From positions 24,118,001-24,182,000 of the forward strand of contig NC_083286.1 in assembly GCF_963506605.1 (NCBI RefSeq): 64,000 nt of DNA, written 5' to 3'. This DNA is from Zootoca vivipara (Eukaryota). The notes below the pieces were generated by a model. That model did not search any database, was not told the DNA's origin, and saw only the letters and a program-made list of their open reading frames with translations. Position numbers and translations under genes: made by a program. Numbering within the stretch: position 1 is the first letter of the stretch; every line of letters starts with the position of its first letter. Of the stretch, positions 10,614 through 62,118 are shown one piece after another.

Positions 10614-10927
10614 CCCATTCTTAAGGAAATCAGCCCCGAGTGCTCACTGGCAGGACAGATCCTGAAGCTGAGGCTCCAATACTTTGGCCACCTCATGAGA
10701 AGAGAAGACTCCCTGGAAAAGACCCTGATGTTGGGAAAGATTGAGGGCACTAGGAGAAGGGGACGACAGAGGATGAGATGGTGGGACAGTGTTCTTGAAT
10801 CTACCAACATGAGTTTGACGAAACTGAGGGAGGCAATGGAAGACAGGAGTGCCTGGCGTGCTATGGTCCATGGGGGTCATGAAGAGTCGGACACGACTAA
10901 ACAACTAAACAACAACAACAACAACAA
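10614..10927 (+). mobile_element. BovB (RTE) LINE 3' fragment
   Basis: ILKEISPECSLAGQILKLRLQYFGHLMRREDSLEKTLMLGKIEG is near-identical to the C-terminus of the 30.7-32.1 kb copy. (CAA)n tail. Confidence 0.93.
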
Positions 10928-17226: not shown

Positions 17227-17273
17227 TACCTGATGAAGGCCTTTGACCTTGTCAGCCAAAAAGGAATAAACAC

Positions 17274-17989
17274 GGGCACAATATTGAGTCTGATGCATGG
17301 GGAAAATTGTGGAATGAAAATCTAAAATTTACGGCATGTACAATTTTAAAAGAGAATGTAATGAAGGTGATTTATCTTTGGTACTTAACCCCTGTAAAGT
17401 TAGATGTAAAATATCAGACGGTGAATTCTACCACATGTGGTGGACGTGTGATAAGATTAAACCATTTTGGGAGAGGCTGTATAATGAGGTTAAAAAGATA
17501 TTTAGATATACCTTTGTCAAAAAGCCGGCAGCCTTTTTGTTGGGGCTAATGGGTAATGAAATTCGAAAAACGGACCAAAGATTGTTTATGTATGCCACTG
17601 TGGCGGCAAGAACATTAATATCCCAAAAGTGGAAATTACCTATGATAGCGGAGTGGCGGACAAAAATGTTAGAATATATGGAAATGGCCAAACTGACACA
17701 CAGAATTCATGACCAGGACGATGGGAGATTTCAGAAGGAATGGAGTAAATTTTTAGATTATGTAAAAGATAATTATAAAGAAATGAAGACACTAGCGGGA
17801 CTGACTTAAAACCTTCATCTTTGATATTAAGCATACTATGTAAATGTGCGATCAGATTGACATATTATACCTGCGGGTGGGGGGGGGAGGGAAGTCAGGG
17901 CTTGATAAAGCTGTATGTTCTATAAATGATATGTATGTATGATATGCAAGAACACCAAATGAAAATAATAAAAATTCAATGGTGGAAAA
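17274..17989 (+). mobile_element. L1 LINE, 5'-truncated (ORF2 C-terminal Cys/His region plus 3' UTR)
   Basis: ORF 17336-17809 reads CKISDGEFYHMWWTCDKIKPFW..PAAFLLG..YMEMAKLT. G-rich UTR, A-rich tail, TSD AAAAAGGAATAA (17258 and 17990). Confidence 0.85.
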
Positions 17990-30134: not shown

Positions 30135-30666
30135 AGCCACTAATGATATCTATAGGTAAGCAAAGTGTGTCTGCTCAGGTGAAAGGAGGAAGAAGAGGTA
30201 TTCTTGCAGCCTAGAGTACCTAAAGCAACTGTTGATTTCAACTCCTAGAGTAGGCATATTTGATAGGGTATTTTGTTGCAGTGTGAAGAGAGAATAAATA
30301 CACAACTGCTAAGAACTTTTAAGTAGCATATGAATTTGACCAGATCTGACATTAAATATATACCTTAAGGAATAGTATCTTAAGGAGTAAAGATACAGAT
30401 TCCATTAGAAACATGTAAGTTCAAGCACAGTTTGGAATGAAAAATAAATGGAAATTGTCTCTGCCAATGTTCTTTTGTTTGTTCGCTTGATGAGGTAAGC
30501 TTTTGCAATTTTGGACAACATTTTAAACAAATCTACAGATTGAGAATATGAAAATCAGTGAAGGAATGAGGTTTCACTTACAAGAAACCAATATTGCCCA
30601 CAGCGATCTTGGCATATAGCATATATACATGACCTTACAACATTTTATTAAGACACATATAGAACA

Positions 30667-32067
30667 ATATGCCAGCAAGTTTGGAAAACTCAGCAATGGC
30701 CAGAGGATTGGAGAAGATCAGTCTACGTCCCAATTCCAAAGAAGGGCAGTGCCAAAGAATGCTCCAACTACCGCACAATTGCGCTCATTTCACACGCTAG
30801 CAAGGTTATGCTTAAAATTCTACAAGGCAGGCTTAGGCAGTATGTGGACCGAGAACTCCCAGAAGTGCAAGCTGGATTTCGAAAGGGCAGAGGAACCAGA
30901 GACCAAATAGCAAACATGCGCTGGATTATGGAGAAAGCTAGAGAGTTCCAGAAAAACGTCTACTTCTGCTTCATTGACTATGCAAAAGCCTTTGACTGTG
31001 TCGACCACAGCAAACTATGGCAAGTTCTTAAAGAAATGGGAGTGCCTGATCACCTCATCTGTCTCCTGAGAAATCTCTATGTGGGACAAGAAGCTACAGT
31101 TAGAACTGGATATGGAACAACTGATTGGTTCAAAATTGGGAAAGGAGTACGACAAGGTTGTATATTGTCTCCCTGCTTATTTAACTTATATGCAGAATTC
31201 ATCATGCGAAAGGCTGGACTAGATGAATCCCAAGCAGGAATTAAGATTGCCGGAAGAAATATCAACAACCTCAGATATGCAGATGACACAACCTTGATGG
31301 CAGAAAGCGAGGAGGAATTAAAGAACCTTTTAATGAGGGTGAAAGAGGAGAGCGCAAAATATGGTCTGAAGCTCAACATCAAAAAAACCAAGATCATGGC
31401 CACTGGTCCCATCACCTCCTGGCAAATAGAAGGGGAAGAAATGGAGGCAGTGAGTGATTTTACTTTCTTGGGCTCCTTGATCACTGCAGATGGTGACAGC
31501 AGTCACGAAATTAAAAGACGCCTGCTTCTTGGGAGAAAAGCAATGACAAACCTAGACAGCATCTTAAAAAGCAGAGACATCACCTTGCCGACAAAGGTCC
31601 GTATAGTTAAAGCTATGGTTTTCCCAGTAGTGATGTATGGAAGTGAGAGCTGGACCATAAAGAAGGCTGATCGCCGAAGAATTGATGCTTTTGAATTATG
31701 GTGCTGGAGGAGACTCTTGAGAGTCCCATGGACTGCTAGAAGATCAAACCTATCAATTCTTAAGGAAATCAGCCCTGAGTGCTCCCTGGAAGGACAGATC
31801 GTGAAGCTGAGGCTCCAATACTTTGGCCACCTCATGAGAAGAGAAGAATCCTTGGAAAAGACCCTGATGTTGGGAAAGATTGAGGGCACTAGGAGAAGGG
31901 GACGACAGAGGACAAGATGGTTGGACAGTGTTCTCGAAGCTACGAACATGAGTTTGACCAAACTACGGGAGGCAGTGCAAGACAGGAGTGCCTGGCGTGC
32001 TATGGTCCATGGGGTCACGAAGAGTCGGACACGACTAAACGACTAAACAACAACAACAACAACAACA
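30667..32067 (+). mobile_element. BovB (RTE clade) LINE, 5'-truncated, young
   Basis: Uninterrupted frame from 30667 to the stop at 32046, (CAA)n tail, TSD ATAGAACA (30659 and 32068). Confidence 0.96.
30808..32046 (+). CDS. BovB reverse transcriptase, partial (TE-encoded, no endonuclease or promoter in this copy)
   Basis: 412-aa ORF with QAGFRKGRGTRDQI, FIDYAKAFD, GVRQGCILSP and LRYADD reverse-transcriptase motifs. Confidence 0.9.
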   Translation: MLKILQGRLRQYVDRELPEVQAGFRKGRGTRDQIANMRWIMEKAREFQKNVYFCFIDYAKAFDCVDHSKLWQVLKEMGVPDHLICLLRNLYVGQEATVRTGYGTTDWFKIGKGVRQGCILSPCLFNLYAEFIMRKAGLDESQAGIKIAGRNINNLRYADDTTLMAESEEELKNLLMRVKEESAKYGLKLNIKKTKIMATGPITSWQIEGEEMEAVSDFTFLGSLITADGDSSHEIKRRLLLGRKAMTNLDSILKSRDITLPTKVRIVKAMVFPVVMYGSESWTIKKADRRRIDAFELWCWRRLLRVPWTARRSNLSILKEISPECSLEGQIVKLRLQYFGHLMRREESLEKTLMLGKIEGTRRRGRQRTRWLDSVLEATNMSLTKLREAVQDRSAWRAMVHGVTKSRTRLND

Positions 32068-38735: not shown

Positions 38736-39347
38736 TGTGATGGCCTGAGACTCGGACTCGGACTCAGAGCCGGAGGAATCACAGCCTGTACTGGACCCTC
38801 TGCCCAGAACATTGGCTGAACCTAGTCTGGGGCCTGTTTCTGAAGAGCCTCAGTCTGCTCAGGCTCCCCTGCAACAAGGACCAGCTGGGCAGAGTCAGGG
38901 GCCTGAGCCTGTCCTGGCTCCAGGTGCTGAGAATACCTCATTGTCGACAGCTGGTCCACTACCAGCTAGATCAGGAGAGGCTGAGGTGGCTCCTGGGTCC
39001 AGTAACCCTCCGGCGTCTCCCGAGCTGCAGAGACTCAGGGCTGAGAGGAGGCAAGACCTGAGTACTTGCAGGAGGAGTGCTCGCCTTCAGGCAAGGCAGG
39101 GTGGTGAGTCATCGGTGGATCGGGACCAGCCATTACCTCGTCAGAGATAAAAGGTGGTTAGACCCCGCCCCAGGTTGCGGGAGAAACATTGCTATTTGCC
39201 AGATCCTGCCTGTGTTCCTGCTCCCAACCTTGTCTAGTTTCCTGCCCTGCACCCTGCCTCAGCTTCATTGGACTGACCCCTCGTTGATTCCTTAGACTTT
39301 GGACCGACCCTGGACCTCACCTCTTGGATTACCCTTGGACCAGCACA
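38736..39347 (+). mobile_element. Solo LTR (probably Gypsy-type) with internal ORF
   Basis: TGTG...CACA termini and 5-bp TSD CTTCT (38731 and 39348). Frame 38740-39150 has a single early TGA. Confidence 0.82.
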
Positions 39348-39421
39348 CTTCTCTTGCTGTGTTGGGGGAAATGATCTGTGTCACAAGACCAGCACAACTC
39401 CAGCATTGTGACCCTCTACAA

Positions 39422-39557
39422 CAGGCATAGGCAAACTTGGCCCTCCAGGCGTTTTGGGACTACAATTCCCATCATCCCTAGCTAACAGGACCAGTGGTCA
39501 GGGATGATGGGAGTTGTAGTCTCAAAACATCTGGAGGGCTGAGTTTGCCTATGCCTG
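39422..39557. mobile_element. Palindromic hAT MITE
   Basis: TIR CAGGCATAGGCAAACT, 8-bp TSD CTCTACAA. Confidence 0.92.
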
Positions 39558-41259
39558 CTCTACAAGACCAAAAATCGCCACGACTGTAACAACTACCATT
39601 GAATCTCCCTGCTGAATACTGTGGGGAAAGACTTTGTTCATGTAGTTCTCAACAGATTAGAGTCACTCGCTGACGTGGTCTATCCTGAGTCACAATGCAA
39701 CTTCAGATCTCTGAGGTCAAAAGTCAACAAGATTTTCTCACTGCACCTGCAGCAAGAGAAATGCCAAGAGCAGAGATGCCCCTTCTACATCGAGAATAGC
39801 ATTTGCCGCTTGACAATGTTAGGATTGCAGCCTAAGACAGGAAGAAAGCAAAGCAAAACTAGAAAAAGAAAAAAGGGGGGGCGTAGTATGTCACTGTTTT
39901 TCTTCCTAGCCCTTCAGTTCTGTGACCGATCTGGTCTAGTATCCTGTTCTAACAGTGACCAACTAGATTCCTATGGAAAATCCAGGAGCAGGATCTGGGT
40001 GGAACAGTATTGTCCCCGCTTGTGAGTCTTAGCAATTGGCATGCAGCCTTCAAATCACACTGCACTCCTTCAGTGGGATTGCTTTGGAGTAAATGGTCTG
40101 AATATTTAAGCCTCAGAGTATGAAGGAATCCTGACATGACCTTTCTCTTTATCCTGTTGTCTTGAATGTCCTTCACTAAATCAACATTGAATTTCAAGTA
40201 TTATTAAGCAAGTTTGGTAATCAGAGGTAGACACTGATTTTTAAGGTCAAGTTAATTACTTGGGAGAGTTTAAAATTAACTGGATTCATTACTCTTTAGT
40301 TTTGAAAACAAAATAATAAGGAAATTGGGACAGCTACAGTTTGCAAATGATGTTGTTGCATTTCATTATAAAAAGAGCTACCATTTTCTAATTGCCTGGG
40401 AATTAGAAGAACAACCTAAGAAAATTAGATTAGATTAAAGTACTCCCAGATGTTTTCATTGGTCACTGCCCTGTTATTAATAGAAAAAGAAGCTTTGAAA
40501 ATTATTTGACAATTAGAAACAAATTAGAATAAGAAATTGTATCTTCTACTCAGAGACATCCCTGGGATATATAACTCAAAATGAAAGGGATCTTATTATC
40601 ACTGTGTTATATTCACAGAGCAGAGAAATGTTTACTCAGATCATGGTACGTAACCTTTTTCATGGGTTTTGGAAATCAAAATTATGTTGACGGATGCCAG
40701 TTACTGAGTTATAAGCTTAGTAATACACACAAGAAAATATTGTTGTCCTTCTTATAATAGGAAAATAAATAACCTCAAGAATTGCCACCAATATTCTATA
40801 TGTATTATATATCAAAACTATTTATACTTAAATGCTTAATGGGTTTAATGAAAGTTTTGATGAGTTTTTCATGATTCACTTAGATGGCTAATTAAATCAA
40901 GAATAAGTGATGTAATCAGGGATGCTATTTAAATAGCAAATGAGTTTTTGAGAAAGGATATGGTTCGTTTGACGTCTGTCATGGATAATCTCATATCTCA
41001 GGCCGCTGATCTGTGTTATCCAGCTGCTTAAACAGAGTTTGGGTGGATTCGCCAGAGTGACTCTGATTACTGACAACCTGTGTCTATGCTTAGTGATTTG
41101 CATATTGCCAACATATAAATTAAGGATTATAAAACTTAAGTTAGCAATCCAGTTCACAATAATCACAAGCATACATCTCAGGTAAAACACATATCCACAT
41201 ACTTCAGGAGTCCATACAGTATTGTAGTTGTTTAAATCAATACATGGGATCTTTTAGTA

Positions 41260-42449: not shown

Positions 42450-42877
42450 ACATAATTGGTTACTTAATCATTTACTTTGTTAGGTTATTCCATTCCACAC
42501 ATTTCAATTGAAAGAAAACACAGGGCAAATTGGGGTAGGGGAGTCATCTGTTACCCAGCTTAGCTATCAAGAGCCATTGTGGTGCTGTGGTTAGAGCATG
42601 GGTAGGCAAACTAAGGCCCGGGGGCCGGATCTGGCCCAGTCGCCTTCTAAATCCGGCCCACAGATGGTCCGGGAATCAGTGTGTTTTTACATAAGTAGAA
42701 TGTGTCCTTTTATTTTAAAATGCATCTCTGGGTTATTTGTGAGGCATGCCTGGTGTTTTTACATGAGTAGAATGTGTGCTTTTATTTTAAATGCATCTCT
42801 GGGTTATTTGTGGGGCATAGGAATTTGTTCATCATTATTATTTTTCAAAATATAGTCTGGCCCCTCAAAAAGGTCTG

Positions 42878-44971
42878 GGACTTCCGGTCTGTCGCGGCGG
42901 AGAGAAGGACGCAGGGACTTCGCGCGCCGAAGTCCCTGGCTTCGCGGAGGGGGGGGAAGTCCGCAGAGCGAGCGGACTCCCCGTAAAAGCACCGGGTAGA
43001 GAGTCCCGGTGACTCACGCGCCCAGCGGCTGCTCCATTTTGCGGATCCCCCGCTGCCCGAGAGCTCAGTAGAGCGATCGAGAGCCGGCGGGGTGGAACCG
43101 CGGGAGCCATTTTGGGCTTAATCTTACCTCCGAGAAGTGAAGCTCCGAGTCCTGACCCGGCAAGCGGCAGATTCTTCCGAACAAAGTTAAAGGTTTCCAT
43201 AAAGTAAGTGGAATTTTGATTACGGACTCTAAATTCATTAATTGGAAAAATAGGAGAGACTTTAAAGAAACGGAAATCGGTCTCTTCCTAATGGAAAACT
43301 GGGAGGCGCTTTAAAAAATCTTAAGCCGAACGACGAAAAGTATTTGGAATTGTGGACCCGAGAGAAAGAAAGACTTTTTCGAACCCTCTCAACTCCCGAG
43401 TCCGGCACCCCTTGAGGTACAGCATTATCAAGGGGGAGAGTGCTTTGACAGCTGTCAAAAGCTGTCAAACTGTCAAAGACCGGGTGGATTTATTGCACTG
43501 TTGTGATTAGTAAAAATTGACTGAAAACGTGGTAGAACTATTTAATATTGGAACTAAGAATGGATTTGTGATTGAATCAAAAGACAAAGGAAAAGAACAG
43601 CCAAAATGGAGTCGATCGTCTAAGGAAGGAATTTTCCAGCACCCTTTGTTCTCCACCTCCTGTTTGTCTGCGGTTAGGAAAAGTATGAAAACAAAGTACT
43701 CTCGAGCCTTCCAGGAGGCTGTGCTAAACTATCTACAAATATGGGAGGACATTTACAAGGAACGGCAACATCCCAATTCACCAGCAGCTGAGGTTGAAGT
43801 CCAAGTCCAGGACTTAGAGGAAAATTTGAATTTGGAGACTGTGGAGATTGAGACTGGATGCCAGGAGAAACAATTTGATGAAAATTTTAAAGAGGACTTG
43901 GACTATAAAAAATATGCTTGGGATGAAGCAAAGCATGGACTTCAAAAGGAAGAAAAACAAGCAGAGCAAGAAAATGAGAAGCAAAGGAACTTGAGGTTTA
44001 ATGGACTTGAAGATCCTGGAGGGGTTGGAATGTGGGGTGATGTCAGTGAGGAATGGGAAAGACAGGGGCAGAGGGGGACAAGGGCCTGGAGACGGATATG
44101 GGAAAGAATGGGTGTGGGATGAAAATTTTAGTTAAAAGTTTTACTTTTAGTTTTTGAAAGACGGTTTTCGAAATTTTGGCCTGTTAACGGAAATGCTGAT
44201 CCAATTGGGGGAAAAGACTTAGGGAGAGGAGATGGAGTGTAAAAATGAAAGAAAATAAGCTGGGTTTTCTGGAGGGAGGCATAAGAACGGCTTAGGAAAG
44301 TATTTAAGCTAATGTAAATTTTTGTAAGTTAAGTTAGGTTCTAGGCAGAAAGCTGCCTACTCTCCTCTCCTTACTCTGAGATACTCAGTGGCAGGGAGTG
44401 CTCGGAGGGGTGAGGAGGGGATATAATGGAACCTTGGAAATGCTGTGCCCTACAGGTTCCTCTTGTGGCAGGAGGGGGCCTGTGGGAGGGCGGCACGGAA
44501 AAGGAGGAGGATTGAGTTAATATTATAAGAAAAGGATTTTAAACTGAAATAGAAAACCCGCCATAAGCTTTTAGATTTTGTTTAGGGAAAACCACGAGGA
44601 AGACTATCGAGGAAGTCACAATTATAAGGTTAAGATAATAAGAATTGGGGAGTTAAAATTCTCCCCTATTATTGTTATGTGTATATTTGTTTAAGTATGT
44701 TTATGAAAGAGCTGGGGGAAACCAATCCTCAGAGCTCCTCCATTCCTGTCCCTTCAGTGGCAGGGGGGGGGAGAGGGGGGAGGAGGGAGGGGGGAGGTCA
44801 AACCCAACTTACAATGGACCCCCTTTGATTCTCAAAGCGCACAGGTTTCACTGGTGGCAGAGGTGGACCAGTGGGTGGAGGGAAAACGAAGGGACAGTGT
44901 TGTATTGTATGTTTGTGTAGTTGTGTAGTTTGTTTAGTTTTGTTTGAAAATTAATAAAAAATTATTATAAA
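42878..44971 (+). mobile_element. Non-autonomous L1-dependent retroelement (HAL1-like), apparently full length
   Basis: CpG-rich 5' end starting GGACTTCCGG, one ORF, AATAAA plus A-rich tail, 11-bp TSD AAAAAGGTCTG, no RT or endonuclease. Confidence 0.8.
43517..44122 (+). CDS. Truncated L1 ORF1p-like charged protein (TE-encoded)
   Basis: 201-codon open frame (TTG start, first in-frame ATG at 43685). E/K/Q-rich segment followed by EKQRNLRFNGLED, resembling the ORF1p coiled-coil/RRM junction. Confidence 0.5.
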   Translation: MTENVVELFNIGTKNGFVIESKDKGKEQPKWSRSSKEGIFQHPLFSTSCLSAVRKSMKTKYSRAFQEAVLNYLQIWEDIYKERQHPNSPAAEVEVQVQDLEENLNLETVEIETGCQEKQFDENFKEDLDYKKYAWDEAKHGLQKEEKQAEQENEKQRNLRFNGLEDPGGVGMWGDVSEEWERQGQRGTRAWRRIWERMGVG

Positions 44972-46614
44972 AAAAAGGTCTGAGGGACAGTGGACCGCCC
45001 CCCTCCTGAAAATGTCTGCTGACCCCTGGGTTAGAGAGTCAGACTAGGACCTGGGAGACCAGGGGTCAAACCCTCGCTCAGCTATGAAGCTCACTTGGTG
45101 ACCTTGGGCCAGTCCTAGTTTCCCAGCCTAACTTACCTCACACAGTTGTTGTGAGGAAAAAATGAGGAGGAGAACTAAGTACCGGTATGCCACCCTGAGC
45201 TCCTTGGAGGAAAGGTGGGTTATAAATGTGATCGATTAAAAACAACAACACACCATCCTTTGTGAAATGAAAACAAAAGCAATGAGTACCTATTATATTC
45301 TCTGGATTGATTTCTGTTCCAGATATGGGATAAATAAGTGAACACTCTCAATTTCTAGTCCTGTTTTTGTTTAAATTCTCCAATGCTCCTATTGTGGATG
45401 TACATATGCATTTGTACAAAGAGGTGATGTATTTCAAACAGCAACACATTCAATCAATTCATCTTTTGTTTTGGCTACTAGCTGAAACTGATCATTCTGA
45501 AATTCTTTCACAGCACTGCTCCAGCTCAGGAATCCACACACAGACCCCCAAAGTAAAAAAAGCACATCTGTAGTTTCTCCTGTAGAAGATACAAGCTTAT
45601 CCTCTTGCTAATATTACTCTGGGTAAATAAGTGTATAAATATGTAAATATATACAAATGCGCAAATGCAGAGGTGGAAAGGATCAACATATAAATTTAAG
45701 ATAGCAACCATTAATTTTTAAAAATTTTAGATTACCATGCTACGTCAAGTAGAAATGAAGGTCTTTCTTGGTGTCTACATCTCATATATCTTATGATGAT
45801 GTGCTATACATGAACAGCAGTAGCATTTGCATGCAGATGATATTGTTCTTTATATGAGATCAACCACCATTGATAATTTCAGTGATGGATGACAGTCATT
45901 AATTGATCTGGTACCCAAATGCTTTGTTCAGAGCAAAAATATTAATATTAAATGCCAAGATAAATAATACAGTACAATATTTTCATATGGATCTATGTTA
46001 AACCAGCAGAAAAAAATGACAACATGTTGATTGAGTACTGATGGATTGCCCTTGATTAGGTGAAAGAGCATTCACTTTTGCATCAACAGAACCAGGGCTT
46101 ATATTTAAATAGATTAAATAGTTAGATGAGTTGGTTGTGATCTCCTGTGTAGACTTGGAAAACGATAGTACAAGTCATTTGGAATGTGGGAAGGATACAG
46201 CTGATCTGCTGGTGCCAATAAGAATATTTCAGTTGCTCCAGTGGTCATGACAATACACAGCAGCTGAGGCTTTGGCAGAGAGGGGAAATAGCTAGGCAGA
46301 ATGGACTGTTTAATTAGTCTTCCATGGTATGTTGAACTCTCCAAGCTCTGGTGCTGCAAAGCCATGTAACTGTAGAAGTCTCAGAGCTGGAATAGGCATT
46401 GCGAGCACCATACAGAGTGGAAAATCTGTGCCCTGCATATGTTGGTTGCATTCACAAGGCAGCTTATTCCATTTCCCAAATGTTTTCTAAATTGTTGATT
46501 TCTGCATTATATTTGGGCTTTTGTGTGACTTATGGGAAACTAATAGAATGTTTAGCACTCATTTCAAAGTTATTTGACTCAAGGACAATCAATTTAGCCC
46601 CTTAACCTGGAAAG

Positions 46615-53749: not shown

Positions 53750-53885
53750 CAGGCACCCCCAAACTTCGGCCCTCCAGATGTTTTGGCCTACAACTCCCAT
53801 GATCCCTAGCTATCAGGACCAGTGGTCAGGGTTGATGGGAATTGTAGTCCAAAACATCTGGAAGGCCGAAGTTTGGGGATGCCTG
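53750..53885. mobile_element. Palindromic hAT MITE
   Basis: TIR CAGGCA(C/T)CCCCAAACTTCGGCC, TSD CCATATTC/CCCTATTC. Confidence 0.92.
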
Positions 53886-54169
53886 CCCTATTCAGCATCC
53901 GCTCCATTCATGAAGGGGAAGCAGATCCATACCAATATTGCTATGCCTCTATCCCCCTGCCCCAGCAGTGGGACCTCTGCAAAAGTGCATGCAGCTGGTA
54001 ACAAGTAGGCACCCGTTGTCAGGCATCACTCTGTATATGCAGAGCCTGAGAATGGGTCCACAATGTCAGGTGCAACCACAGATATGGTCCCACTCTTCCC
54101 TCATTTCATTTAGCCTACATTAGTATGATGAAGAAAACTACCCTTCAGGAATTCACCATACACTTACAG

Positions 54170-54305
54170 CAGGCATCCCCAAACTGCGGCCCTCCAGATG
54201 TTTTGGCCTACAACTCCCATGATCCCTAGCTAACAGGACCAGTGGTCAGGGATGATGGGAATTGTAGTCCAAAACATCTGGAGGGCCGAAGTTTGGGGAT
54301 GCCTG
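54170..54305. mobile_element. Palindromic hAT MITE
   Basis: TIR CAGGCATCCCCAAACT, perfect TSD ACTTACAG. Confidence 0.93.
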
Positions 54306-54552
54306 ACTTACAGGATAGGGTTGTTTGTTTGTTTGTTTTTGTTTTTTGTAGAAGGTATACTTTGCACTTCTGTGTGCCATTTCCTTTAACTAGTCAATAA
54401 CACATGGGGGGGTTAACCCCTTTTCTTTTCCCCACGGGTAAGTACACAGTTTTAAAAGAGCAAGAGAATGAGCAAATGAGGGCTGGCTGGTTACAAATGT
54501 GTTCATTGTGCATTTCCTCAAACTGAAAAGCTCAATTCAAAATCTGATCCTA

Positions 54553-61980: not shown

Positions 61981-62118
61981 CAGTGTTTCTCAACCAGTGT
62001 GCCTCCAGATGTTTTGGGACTACGACTCCCATCATTCCTGACCACTGGTCTTGCTAGCTAGGGATGATGGGAGTTGTAGTCCCAAAACATCTGGAGGCAC
62101 ACTGGTTGAGAAACACTG
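61981..62118. mobile_element. Palindromic hAT MITE (alternative TIR)
   Basis: Long TIR CAGTGTTTCTCAACCAGTGTGCCTCCAGATGTTTTGGGACTAC, perfect TSD ATGTAGTC. Confidence 0.93.

Follow-up and report, generated by a model that had tools for sequence, protein, structure and literature searches.

A multi-copy, non-autonomous L1-type retroposon

The window, the whole 64,000-nt stretch of DNA that was analysed, carries a 2.1-kb insertion on the + strand (42878 to ~44971), in whose 3′ UTR the hairpin modules studied here are located. The parts of the element and of its insertion site are given below; statements on published work refer throughout to the available portions of the papers cited.

42600..42866, no strand assigned: left part of a very abundant short repeat hit by the insertion (left limit approximate; from read and contig depth and joints)
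42867..42877 (left) and 44972..44982 (right), +: 11-bp target-site duplication AAAAAGGTCTG (from the sequence)
42878..42888, +: 5′ terminus GGACTTCCGGT, matching the lizard clade-1 L1 start (GACTTCCGGTG...) and zebrafish L1s
42878..43684, +: 5′ UTR, CpG-rich at its start
43685..44122, +: orphan ORF of 145 aa, from the first in-frame ATG (frame open from 43514)
44953..44958, +: AATAAA polyadenylation signal, preceded by a GU-rich stretch
44969..44976, +: short A-tail of 8 A, the final 5 A common with the right duplication
44983..45028, no strand assigned: right-hand remainder of that short repeat (joints found at 44975, loose ends beyond 45028)

The 5′ terminus corresponds to the L1 start reported for lizard clade-1 and zebrafish families (PMC5381506), the alignment with the lizard start being confined to the first 11 nt. 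The leader begins with a region of 68% GC containing 23 CpG (42870-43069), and a 3′ UTR of ~850 nt lies behind the short ORF. This ORF is the only + strand frame of at least 120 aa in the element and gave no reverse transcriptase match; no endonuclease or reverse transcriptase ORF was found in the element. The interrupted short repeat, which appears to be MITE-like, was present at tens of times the depth of the element, and many reads and contigs joined 42832-42864 directly to 44975. Diverged contigs and reads spanned the whole element in organism A and also, at lower density, in organism B. Since diverged contigs covered its full length in both organisms, the element represents a multi-copy family, of which the window holds no second copy. 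The insertion is thus a multi-copy, non-autonomous L1-type retroposon, displaying the duplication at an A-rich site, AATAAA signal, A-tail, lack of an endonuclease or reverse transcriptase ORF and multiple copies expected of L1 mobilisation. An earlier note on this DNA had placed the hairpins in the 3′ UTR of such an element, a location borne out by the L1-type ends, the duplication, the A-tail and the absence of reverse transcriptase.

Within the 5′ UTR, an ATG in strong context (GCCAAAATGG; 43606-43623, +) opens just 5 codons. Near 43622 some contigs differ or join elsewhere, suggesting subfamilies with other sequence upstream of the ORF. Strong GC-rich hairpins lie at 42912-42938 and 43036-43105 (+), one of them a near-perfect inverted repeat near the 5′ end.

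The 145-aa product is rich in E, K and Q and was predicted at low confidence (pLDDT 53.5, single-sequence model) to be all-helical. No homologues were recovered by word-index searches, by phmmer against 1.84 billion representatives, or from the Atlas, Pfam, PDB and metagenome loci, the best PDB sequence match having an E of 0.21. A long helix of the model ends in RNLRFNGLED, which we take to resemble the start of the ORF1p RRM, and the product is possibly a truncated ORF1p-like (coiled-coil) protein. Among the variants listed, 5/13 in the ORF were synonymous and 0/13 created a stop.

Other repeats share the window. A 464-codon frame at 30652-32065 (+), with an RVT_1 match at E 2e-41, ends in AAC repeats and is presumably Bov-B/RTE-like. 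The Bov-B-like reverse transcriptase fragment of the window and the 5′ end of the element together suggest a squamate host. A GC-rich (~50%) region at 38750-39400, with a TATA-like and a pyrimidine-rich part, gives the impression of a solitary long terminal repeat. The strongest hairpins of the window belong to a MITE-like family of short inverted repeats (39422-39562, 53750-53890, 54170-54310 and 62002-62097).

Two related modules present four GUGGCAG loops

The modules span 44335-44897, and each contains two long pyrimidine/purine hairpins (H1 and H2 in module 1, H3 and H4 in module 2).

44342..44359, +: short hairpin of module 1, 7 bp with an AAAG loop (predicted by folding)
44360..44420, +: H1, 23 predicted pairs, loop AGUGGCAGG at 44387-44395
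44423..44435, +: linker 1 with TATAATGGAACC (sequence and fold)
44441..44495, +: H2, shared-register loop UGUGGCAGG at 44464-44472
44506..44704, +: AU-rich spacer between the modules (from the sequence)
44709..44737, +: short hairpin region of module 2, with competing registers (predicted by folding)
44735..44786, +: H3, loop AGUGGCAGG at 44756-44764
44810..44821, +: linker 2 with TACAATGGACCC (from the sequence)
44821..44893, +: H4, 25 predicted pairs, loop GGUGGCAGA at 44853-44861

Global alignment showed the two modules, described in the earlier note as having the same order of parts, to be related (score 105 versus 48.2±10.1; 0/1000 shuffles as high). The second hairpins, H2 and H4, are identical at 28/38 positions in an ungapped alignment. 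GTGGCA occurs at 44388, 44465, 44757 and 44854 and extends to GTGGCAG in every case; the four long stems, described in the earlier note as capped by GUGGCA, in fact carry GUGGCAG at all four apices. Four copies of GTGGCAG within 44335-44897 (563 nt) were reached by 0/5000 dinucleotide shuffles, and four copies of any 7-mer containing all four letters by 6/5000. A motif-plus-linker pattern derived from both modules matched just these two places in the window, the linker-to-loop distance being 32 nt in one module and 33 nt in the other. The linker TA(T/C)AATGGA.CC and the loops have been kept while the stems have diverged yet still pair, again in agreement with the original description. The 7-bp short hairpin claimed for both modules was clean in module 1 (44342-44359), whereas competing registers were predicted in module 2. 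Linker 1 may pair with 44336-44342 to form a three-way junction, a prediction for module 1 only.

The four hairpins were aligned ungapped, anchored on the motif, and 36 registers were tried. A single register gave complete pairing (20/20 cells), consisting of a 9-nt loop, N-GUGGCAG-R, on a 5-bp stem; this loop replaces the 5-7 nt originally suggested. Two-sided changes were found at 4/5 pairs of this register, a level reached by 7/500 shuffles, and an exact permutation gave 0.008; since duplication links the hairpins to one another and this register was picked after inspection, the shuffle counts are not probabilities. Slid controls were 69-88% paired, with at most one pair showing a two-sided change, and none of the 11 other GTGGCAG sites in the window had five such pairs. 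All 7 motif positions are invariant in 4/4 hairpins, whereas each of the 5 neighbouring pairs varies; the two A-U pairs, which are rare, are both matched. A conserved loop on a covarying stem is therefore seen among four paralogous hairpins of one copy. Over a longer, 14-pair register, H2 and H4 were paired in 26/28 cells, with 1 two-sided and 4 one-sided changes, a pairing not above shuffle (243/500) and one for which two sequences cannot beat the shuffle.

The iron-responsive element is defined by CAGUG within a 6-nt loop. Reading the CAGUG found here in that way was dropped, as the stem needed to close a 6-nt loop does not pair.

Folding is strand-biased and strongest in module 1

Module 1 folded at -85.8 kcal/mol (z -5.64; 0/200 shuffles as low) and module 2 at -79.8 kcal/mol (z -1.99; 8/200), and all four hairpins were retained when the whole element was folded. 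As a stricter control, each arm was dinucleotide-shuffled separately 500 times, which keeps the 5′ arm C/U-rich and the 3′ arm G/A-rich. Shuffles as good were obtained in 1/500 cases for H1, 1/500 for H2, 15/500 for H4 (marginal) and 142/500 for H3, so that H3 is explained by composition alone. The expectation that the hairpins fold better than dinucleotide-shuffled G-rich controls thus held for H1 and H2, marginally for H4, and failed for H3. The preference for + strand RNA, also expected from the many G-U pairs, was upheld at every hairpin: + and - strand folds were -33.6 and -20.5 kcal/mol for H1, -36.4 and -21.2 for H2, -31.4 and -20.2 for H3, and -28.3 and -17.5 for H4, an advantage of 11-15 kcal/mol each.

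In its minimum-energy fold, H2 has a loop of 3 nt and most of the motif is buried; this fold lies 4.5 kcal/mol below the fold in which the 9 loop nt are forced open. The 3′ arm of H3 matches the canonical G-quadruplex pattern (score 2.96), found in no other hairpin arm, and the module 2 fold shifts to use quadruplexes once these are allowed. In such folding models, H3 could adopt a G-quadruplex in competition with its predicted stem.

Variation among copies, reads and contigs

Six variants fell in the hairpins, none of them in a loop or linker, among the variants listed (40 of 629). Folding energy was equal or better for 5/6 (combined p 0.14, not significant). The variants at 44478 and 44862 convert a U-G pair to U-A, as found at the same place in the sister hairpin, and that at 44769 disrupts a C-G pair. 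A>G differences in the stems were not accepted as RNA editing, the same differences being present in a DNA run.

Contigs of organism B differed at 15/490 positions in the 3′ region versus 111/869 upstream, counted on 7 of 8 records out of 493 that represent different copies, with gaps excluded (10 in one 3′ record). A contig consisting mostly of spacer showed 6/139 differences, versus 4/162 for a contig over module 1. Since the mostly-spacer contig is about equally conserved, and the records are few and from mixed copies, we did not count the lower 3′ divergence as specific to the modules. Summed contig depth was 65,600 over the module bins versus 33,900 and 34,000 over the spacer and ORF bins, with 3106 records fitting two places.

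RNA reads of the element were few, in both orientations, mostly <95% alike and mostly from other copies. No transcript start or end was defined on the element in the RNA runs examined, no joint inside the element appeared among the joints listed, and no indexed RNA run was listed for it.

Searches for related motifs and for L1s with the loop

Rfam, whose families include the iron-responsive element, U4, 7SK and ribozymes, returned 11 matches to 42800-45100 at E up to 10, all far below the gathering threshold (best E 0.86). We found no paper describing the motif in the literature searched; Repbase and Dfam lay outside the scope of the search, and the family may be catalogued there. With neither an Rfam family nor a description in that literature, the suggestion of a possibly undescribed element stands. 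The module pattern matched 1 locus in viral contigs, 52 in metagenome contigs and 7 in prokaryote genomes, the last by similarity over 20-24 nt alone. When 57 matches outside the window were folded, only one metagenome locus, L028 (~1410-1600, -), placed both motifs in long hairpins. It was rejected as a relative, being a 63% GC tandem palindromic repeat (presumably REP-like) without BLAST similarity to the element; its hairpins likewise end in GGUGGCAGA, which we take as chance. No related locus was thus found in the viral, metagenome and prokaryote collections, a weakly informative result as these are assumed to hold little reptile DNA.

The window contains one intact L1 3′ UTR. It belongs to a 5′-truncated L1 3′ end at 17270-17989 (+), with a frameshifted ORF2-like C-terminus, a G-rich 3′ UTR and a 12-bp duplication (AAAAAGGAATAA) at 17258 and 17990; the C-terminal frame is assigned, on our assumption, from a motif, and gave no Pfam match over 17270-17989. 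GTGGCAG is absent from this 3′ UTR. Since this truncated L1 inserted without them, L1 insertion in this genome does not generally require the loops, and direct recognition of their sequence by ORF2p is weakened as a general rule, although a single family among many is slender proof. The last 107 nt of the element showed a weak likeness to the L1 3′ UTR at 17810-17986 (score 28 versus 19.8±3.3; 52/2000 shuffles).

An older, degraded L1 ORF2 fragment lies at 11300-10340 (-), with a tblastn E of 1e-4 to the fragment at 17.3 kb and an unrecognisable 3′ UTR; a Bov-B-like short 3′ piece (~10617-10927) interrupts it. L1 3′ UTRs of lizards have been described as repeat-containing, those of Anolis being mostly without G-rich tracts (PMC5381506). 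Five probe motifs were absent from the available supplement of that paper, which includes spacers and gives full-length L1s to 400 letters. By eye, the ORF1-ORF2 spacers of Anolis L1_AC17 and L1_AC18 in this supplement each hold a pyrimidine/purine hairpin whose loops are similar and contain GAUGG and whose stems differ, a layout resembling the present one except in its loop; the available text of PMC5381506 itself reports no shared structures for those spacers.

Interpretation of the four loops

These results demonstrate that the motif is real, non-random and apparently undescribed. Its kind is already known from the 3′ stem-loop signals of non-LTR retroelements, among which it is a further variant. 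A protein-binding site used multivalently would be expected to show just such a pattern, with one loop sequence occurring four times on interchangeable stems, and we tentatively favour, with somewhat less than even confidence, the reading that the four loops are a protein-docking signal helping the element RNA to capture L1 ORF2p in trans. The hairpins, as predicted, would form in + strand RNA and expose four near-identical GUGGCAG loops on long G-U-rich stems; selection would have kept the loop sequence and the pairing of the stems while the latter diverged. A protein would read the loops; given that one L1 3′ end in the window lacks them, we slightly favour a host RNA-binding adaptor over ORF2p itself. 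RNA so bound might meet nascent ORF2p more often, as Alu does via SRP9/14; in addition, ORF2p may be anchored by the last stem, upstream of the A-tail. Against capture, ~75-610 nt separate the ends of the hairpins from the A-tail; in the human ORF2p structure, by contrast, the stem adjoins the poly(A) (PMC10830416). A bolder form, which we consider doubtful, would make the element one of an undescribed reptile class of non-autonomous L1 parasites, in which a four-loop N-GUGGCAG-R scaffold, neither 7SL- nor tRNA-derived and absent from the helper L1, recruits a host protein and hijacks ORF2p, with the orphan helical protein replacing ORF1p; this would be an independent answer to the problem that Alu solved with SRP9/14.

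The module may instead descend from one autonomous L1 family, in whose 3′ UTR or ORF1-ORF2 spacer it would be the stringent ORF2p recognition site; the element would then be an internally deleted derivative that kept and duplicated it. Stringent LINEs and SINEs, those of the plant L1 clade included, do share 3′ stem-loops with conserved loops and variable stems (PMC3747384), and both the weak likeness of the last 107 nt to an L1 3′ UTR and the ~2-fold contig depth over the modules, expected if other elements share them, point the same way. However, that excess may reflect cross-mapping between modules, given the records fitting two places; the sole intact L1 3′ UTR of the window has no GTGGCAG, those of Anolis L1s are described as mostly without G-rich tracts, and the five probe motifs were absent from the available supplement of PMC5381506. 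We regard such inheritance as unlikely. Similar weight, and thus a minor one, is given to a host protein that stabilises, exports, localises or translationally controls the intronless RNA of the element from the loops, with no special role for ORF2p. Four dispersed copies far from the A-tail would suit cooperative binding, and a long 3′ UTR behind a short ORF, next to an L1 without loops, is consistent with it, but no known element with this loop was found in Rfam or the literature searched, and expression data do not tie the module to RNA level.

A neutral origin would have an ancestral G-rich and C/U-rich hairpin duplicated twice, its apex surviving by chance, with any function residing in quadruplex-forming G-tracts as proposed for mammalian L1 3′ UTRs. 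The behaviour of H3, no better than composition-matched shuffles and with its quadruplex pattern, fits this, as do the effect of G-rich tracts on retrotransposition of mouse and human L1 (PMC13705589) and the similar conservation of spacer and module 1 contigs in organism B. Against it stand the invariance of the motif beside five variable pairs, the matched A-U pairs, the excess of H1 and H2 over arm-wise shuffles and the kept linker-to-loop spacing, and we judge it quite improbable. Mimicry of a small nuclear RNA (U4 or 7SK stem-loop 4), attracting U6 or LARP7-type partners, is highly improbable. Human U4 contains the CAGUGGCAG of H1 and H3 close to its 5′ end (PMC13253345), 7SK stem-loop 4 contains the UGUGGCAG of H2 (PMC13383808), and U6-LINE chimeras exist in Anolis (PMC4476161), but these are matches of 7-9 letters found post hoc by text search for the motif. 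On our reading of the printed sequences, neither is an open 9-nt loop: the U4 stretch lies in and beside stem II with U6 (n.3-16), and the GCAG part of 7SK has an upstream CUGC partner. Among the Rfam matches at E up to 10, none was to U4 or 7SK.

The way in which non-autonomous RNAs get round the cis-preference of L1 ORF2p has been worked out chiefly for Alu; for L1s outside mammals, it is an open question whether 3′ structures are read (PMC4176376). With its four copies and natural covariation signal, the loop motif offers a compact handle on trans capture of ORF2p. Should the module affect only RNA stability, it would still be an uncatalogued vertebrate cis-element; should it be neutral, it would be an ordinary G-rich repeat tail.

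Comparison with known systems

HAL1 (half-L1) elements are non-autonomous L1 derivatives (PMC5753468, PMC5786205) and resemble the present element in their A-tail, single ORF, absence of ORF2 and presumed mobilisation by L1 in trans, and, as far as its first 11 nt go, in an L1-type 5′ end. They differ in encoding a recognisable ORF1p (coiled coil, RRM, C-terminal domain), whereas no homology to ORF1p was detected for the 145-aa ORF, and neither an RRM nor a C-terminal domain was predicted in it. The available portions of these two papers mention no repeated 3′ hairpin module.

The stringent 3′ tails of LINEs and SINEs (ZfL2-1 and ZfL2-2, PMC4176376; plant L1/SINE, PMC3747384) likewise combine a conserved loop with a variable paired stem in the 3′ UTR, and the L2 ORF2 of zebrafish is general in its reading of the stem but specific for the loop (PMC4176376), a precedent for the docking reading. 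In contrast to these tails, the element has four long stems, each with a 9-nt GUGGCAG loop, spread across two duplicated modules and 550 nt; the one intact L1 3′ UTR of the window revealed no autonomous partner with this loop.

Alu is a Pol III transcript of 7SL origin. The element, unlike Alu, starts with an L1-type leader and contains an ORF, and no Rfam family corresponds to its loops. Alu capture of ORF2p through SRP9/14 (PMC10830416) is comparable in employing a structured non-autonomous RNA, in depending on ORF2p and an A-tail, and in its proposed logic; human L1 ORF2p engages a template stem-loop, proposed as the reason why Alu outcompetes L1 RNA (PMC10830416), which is a second precedent for the docking reading.

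With the G-rich tract of mammalian L1 3′ UTRs (PMC5381506, PMC13705589) the element shares sense-strand G-runs and, in H3, quadruplex potential. It differs from that tract in that a complementary C/U-rich arm and an unchanging loop motif stand before each of its G-rich arms.
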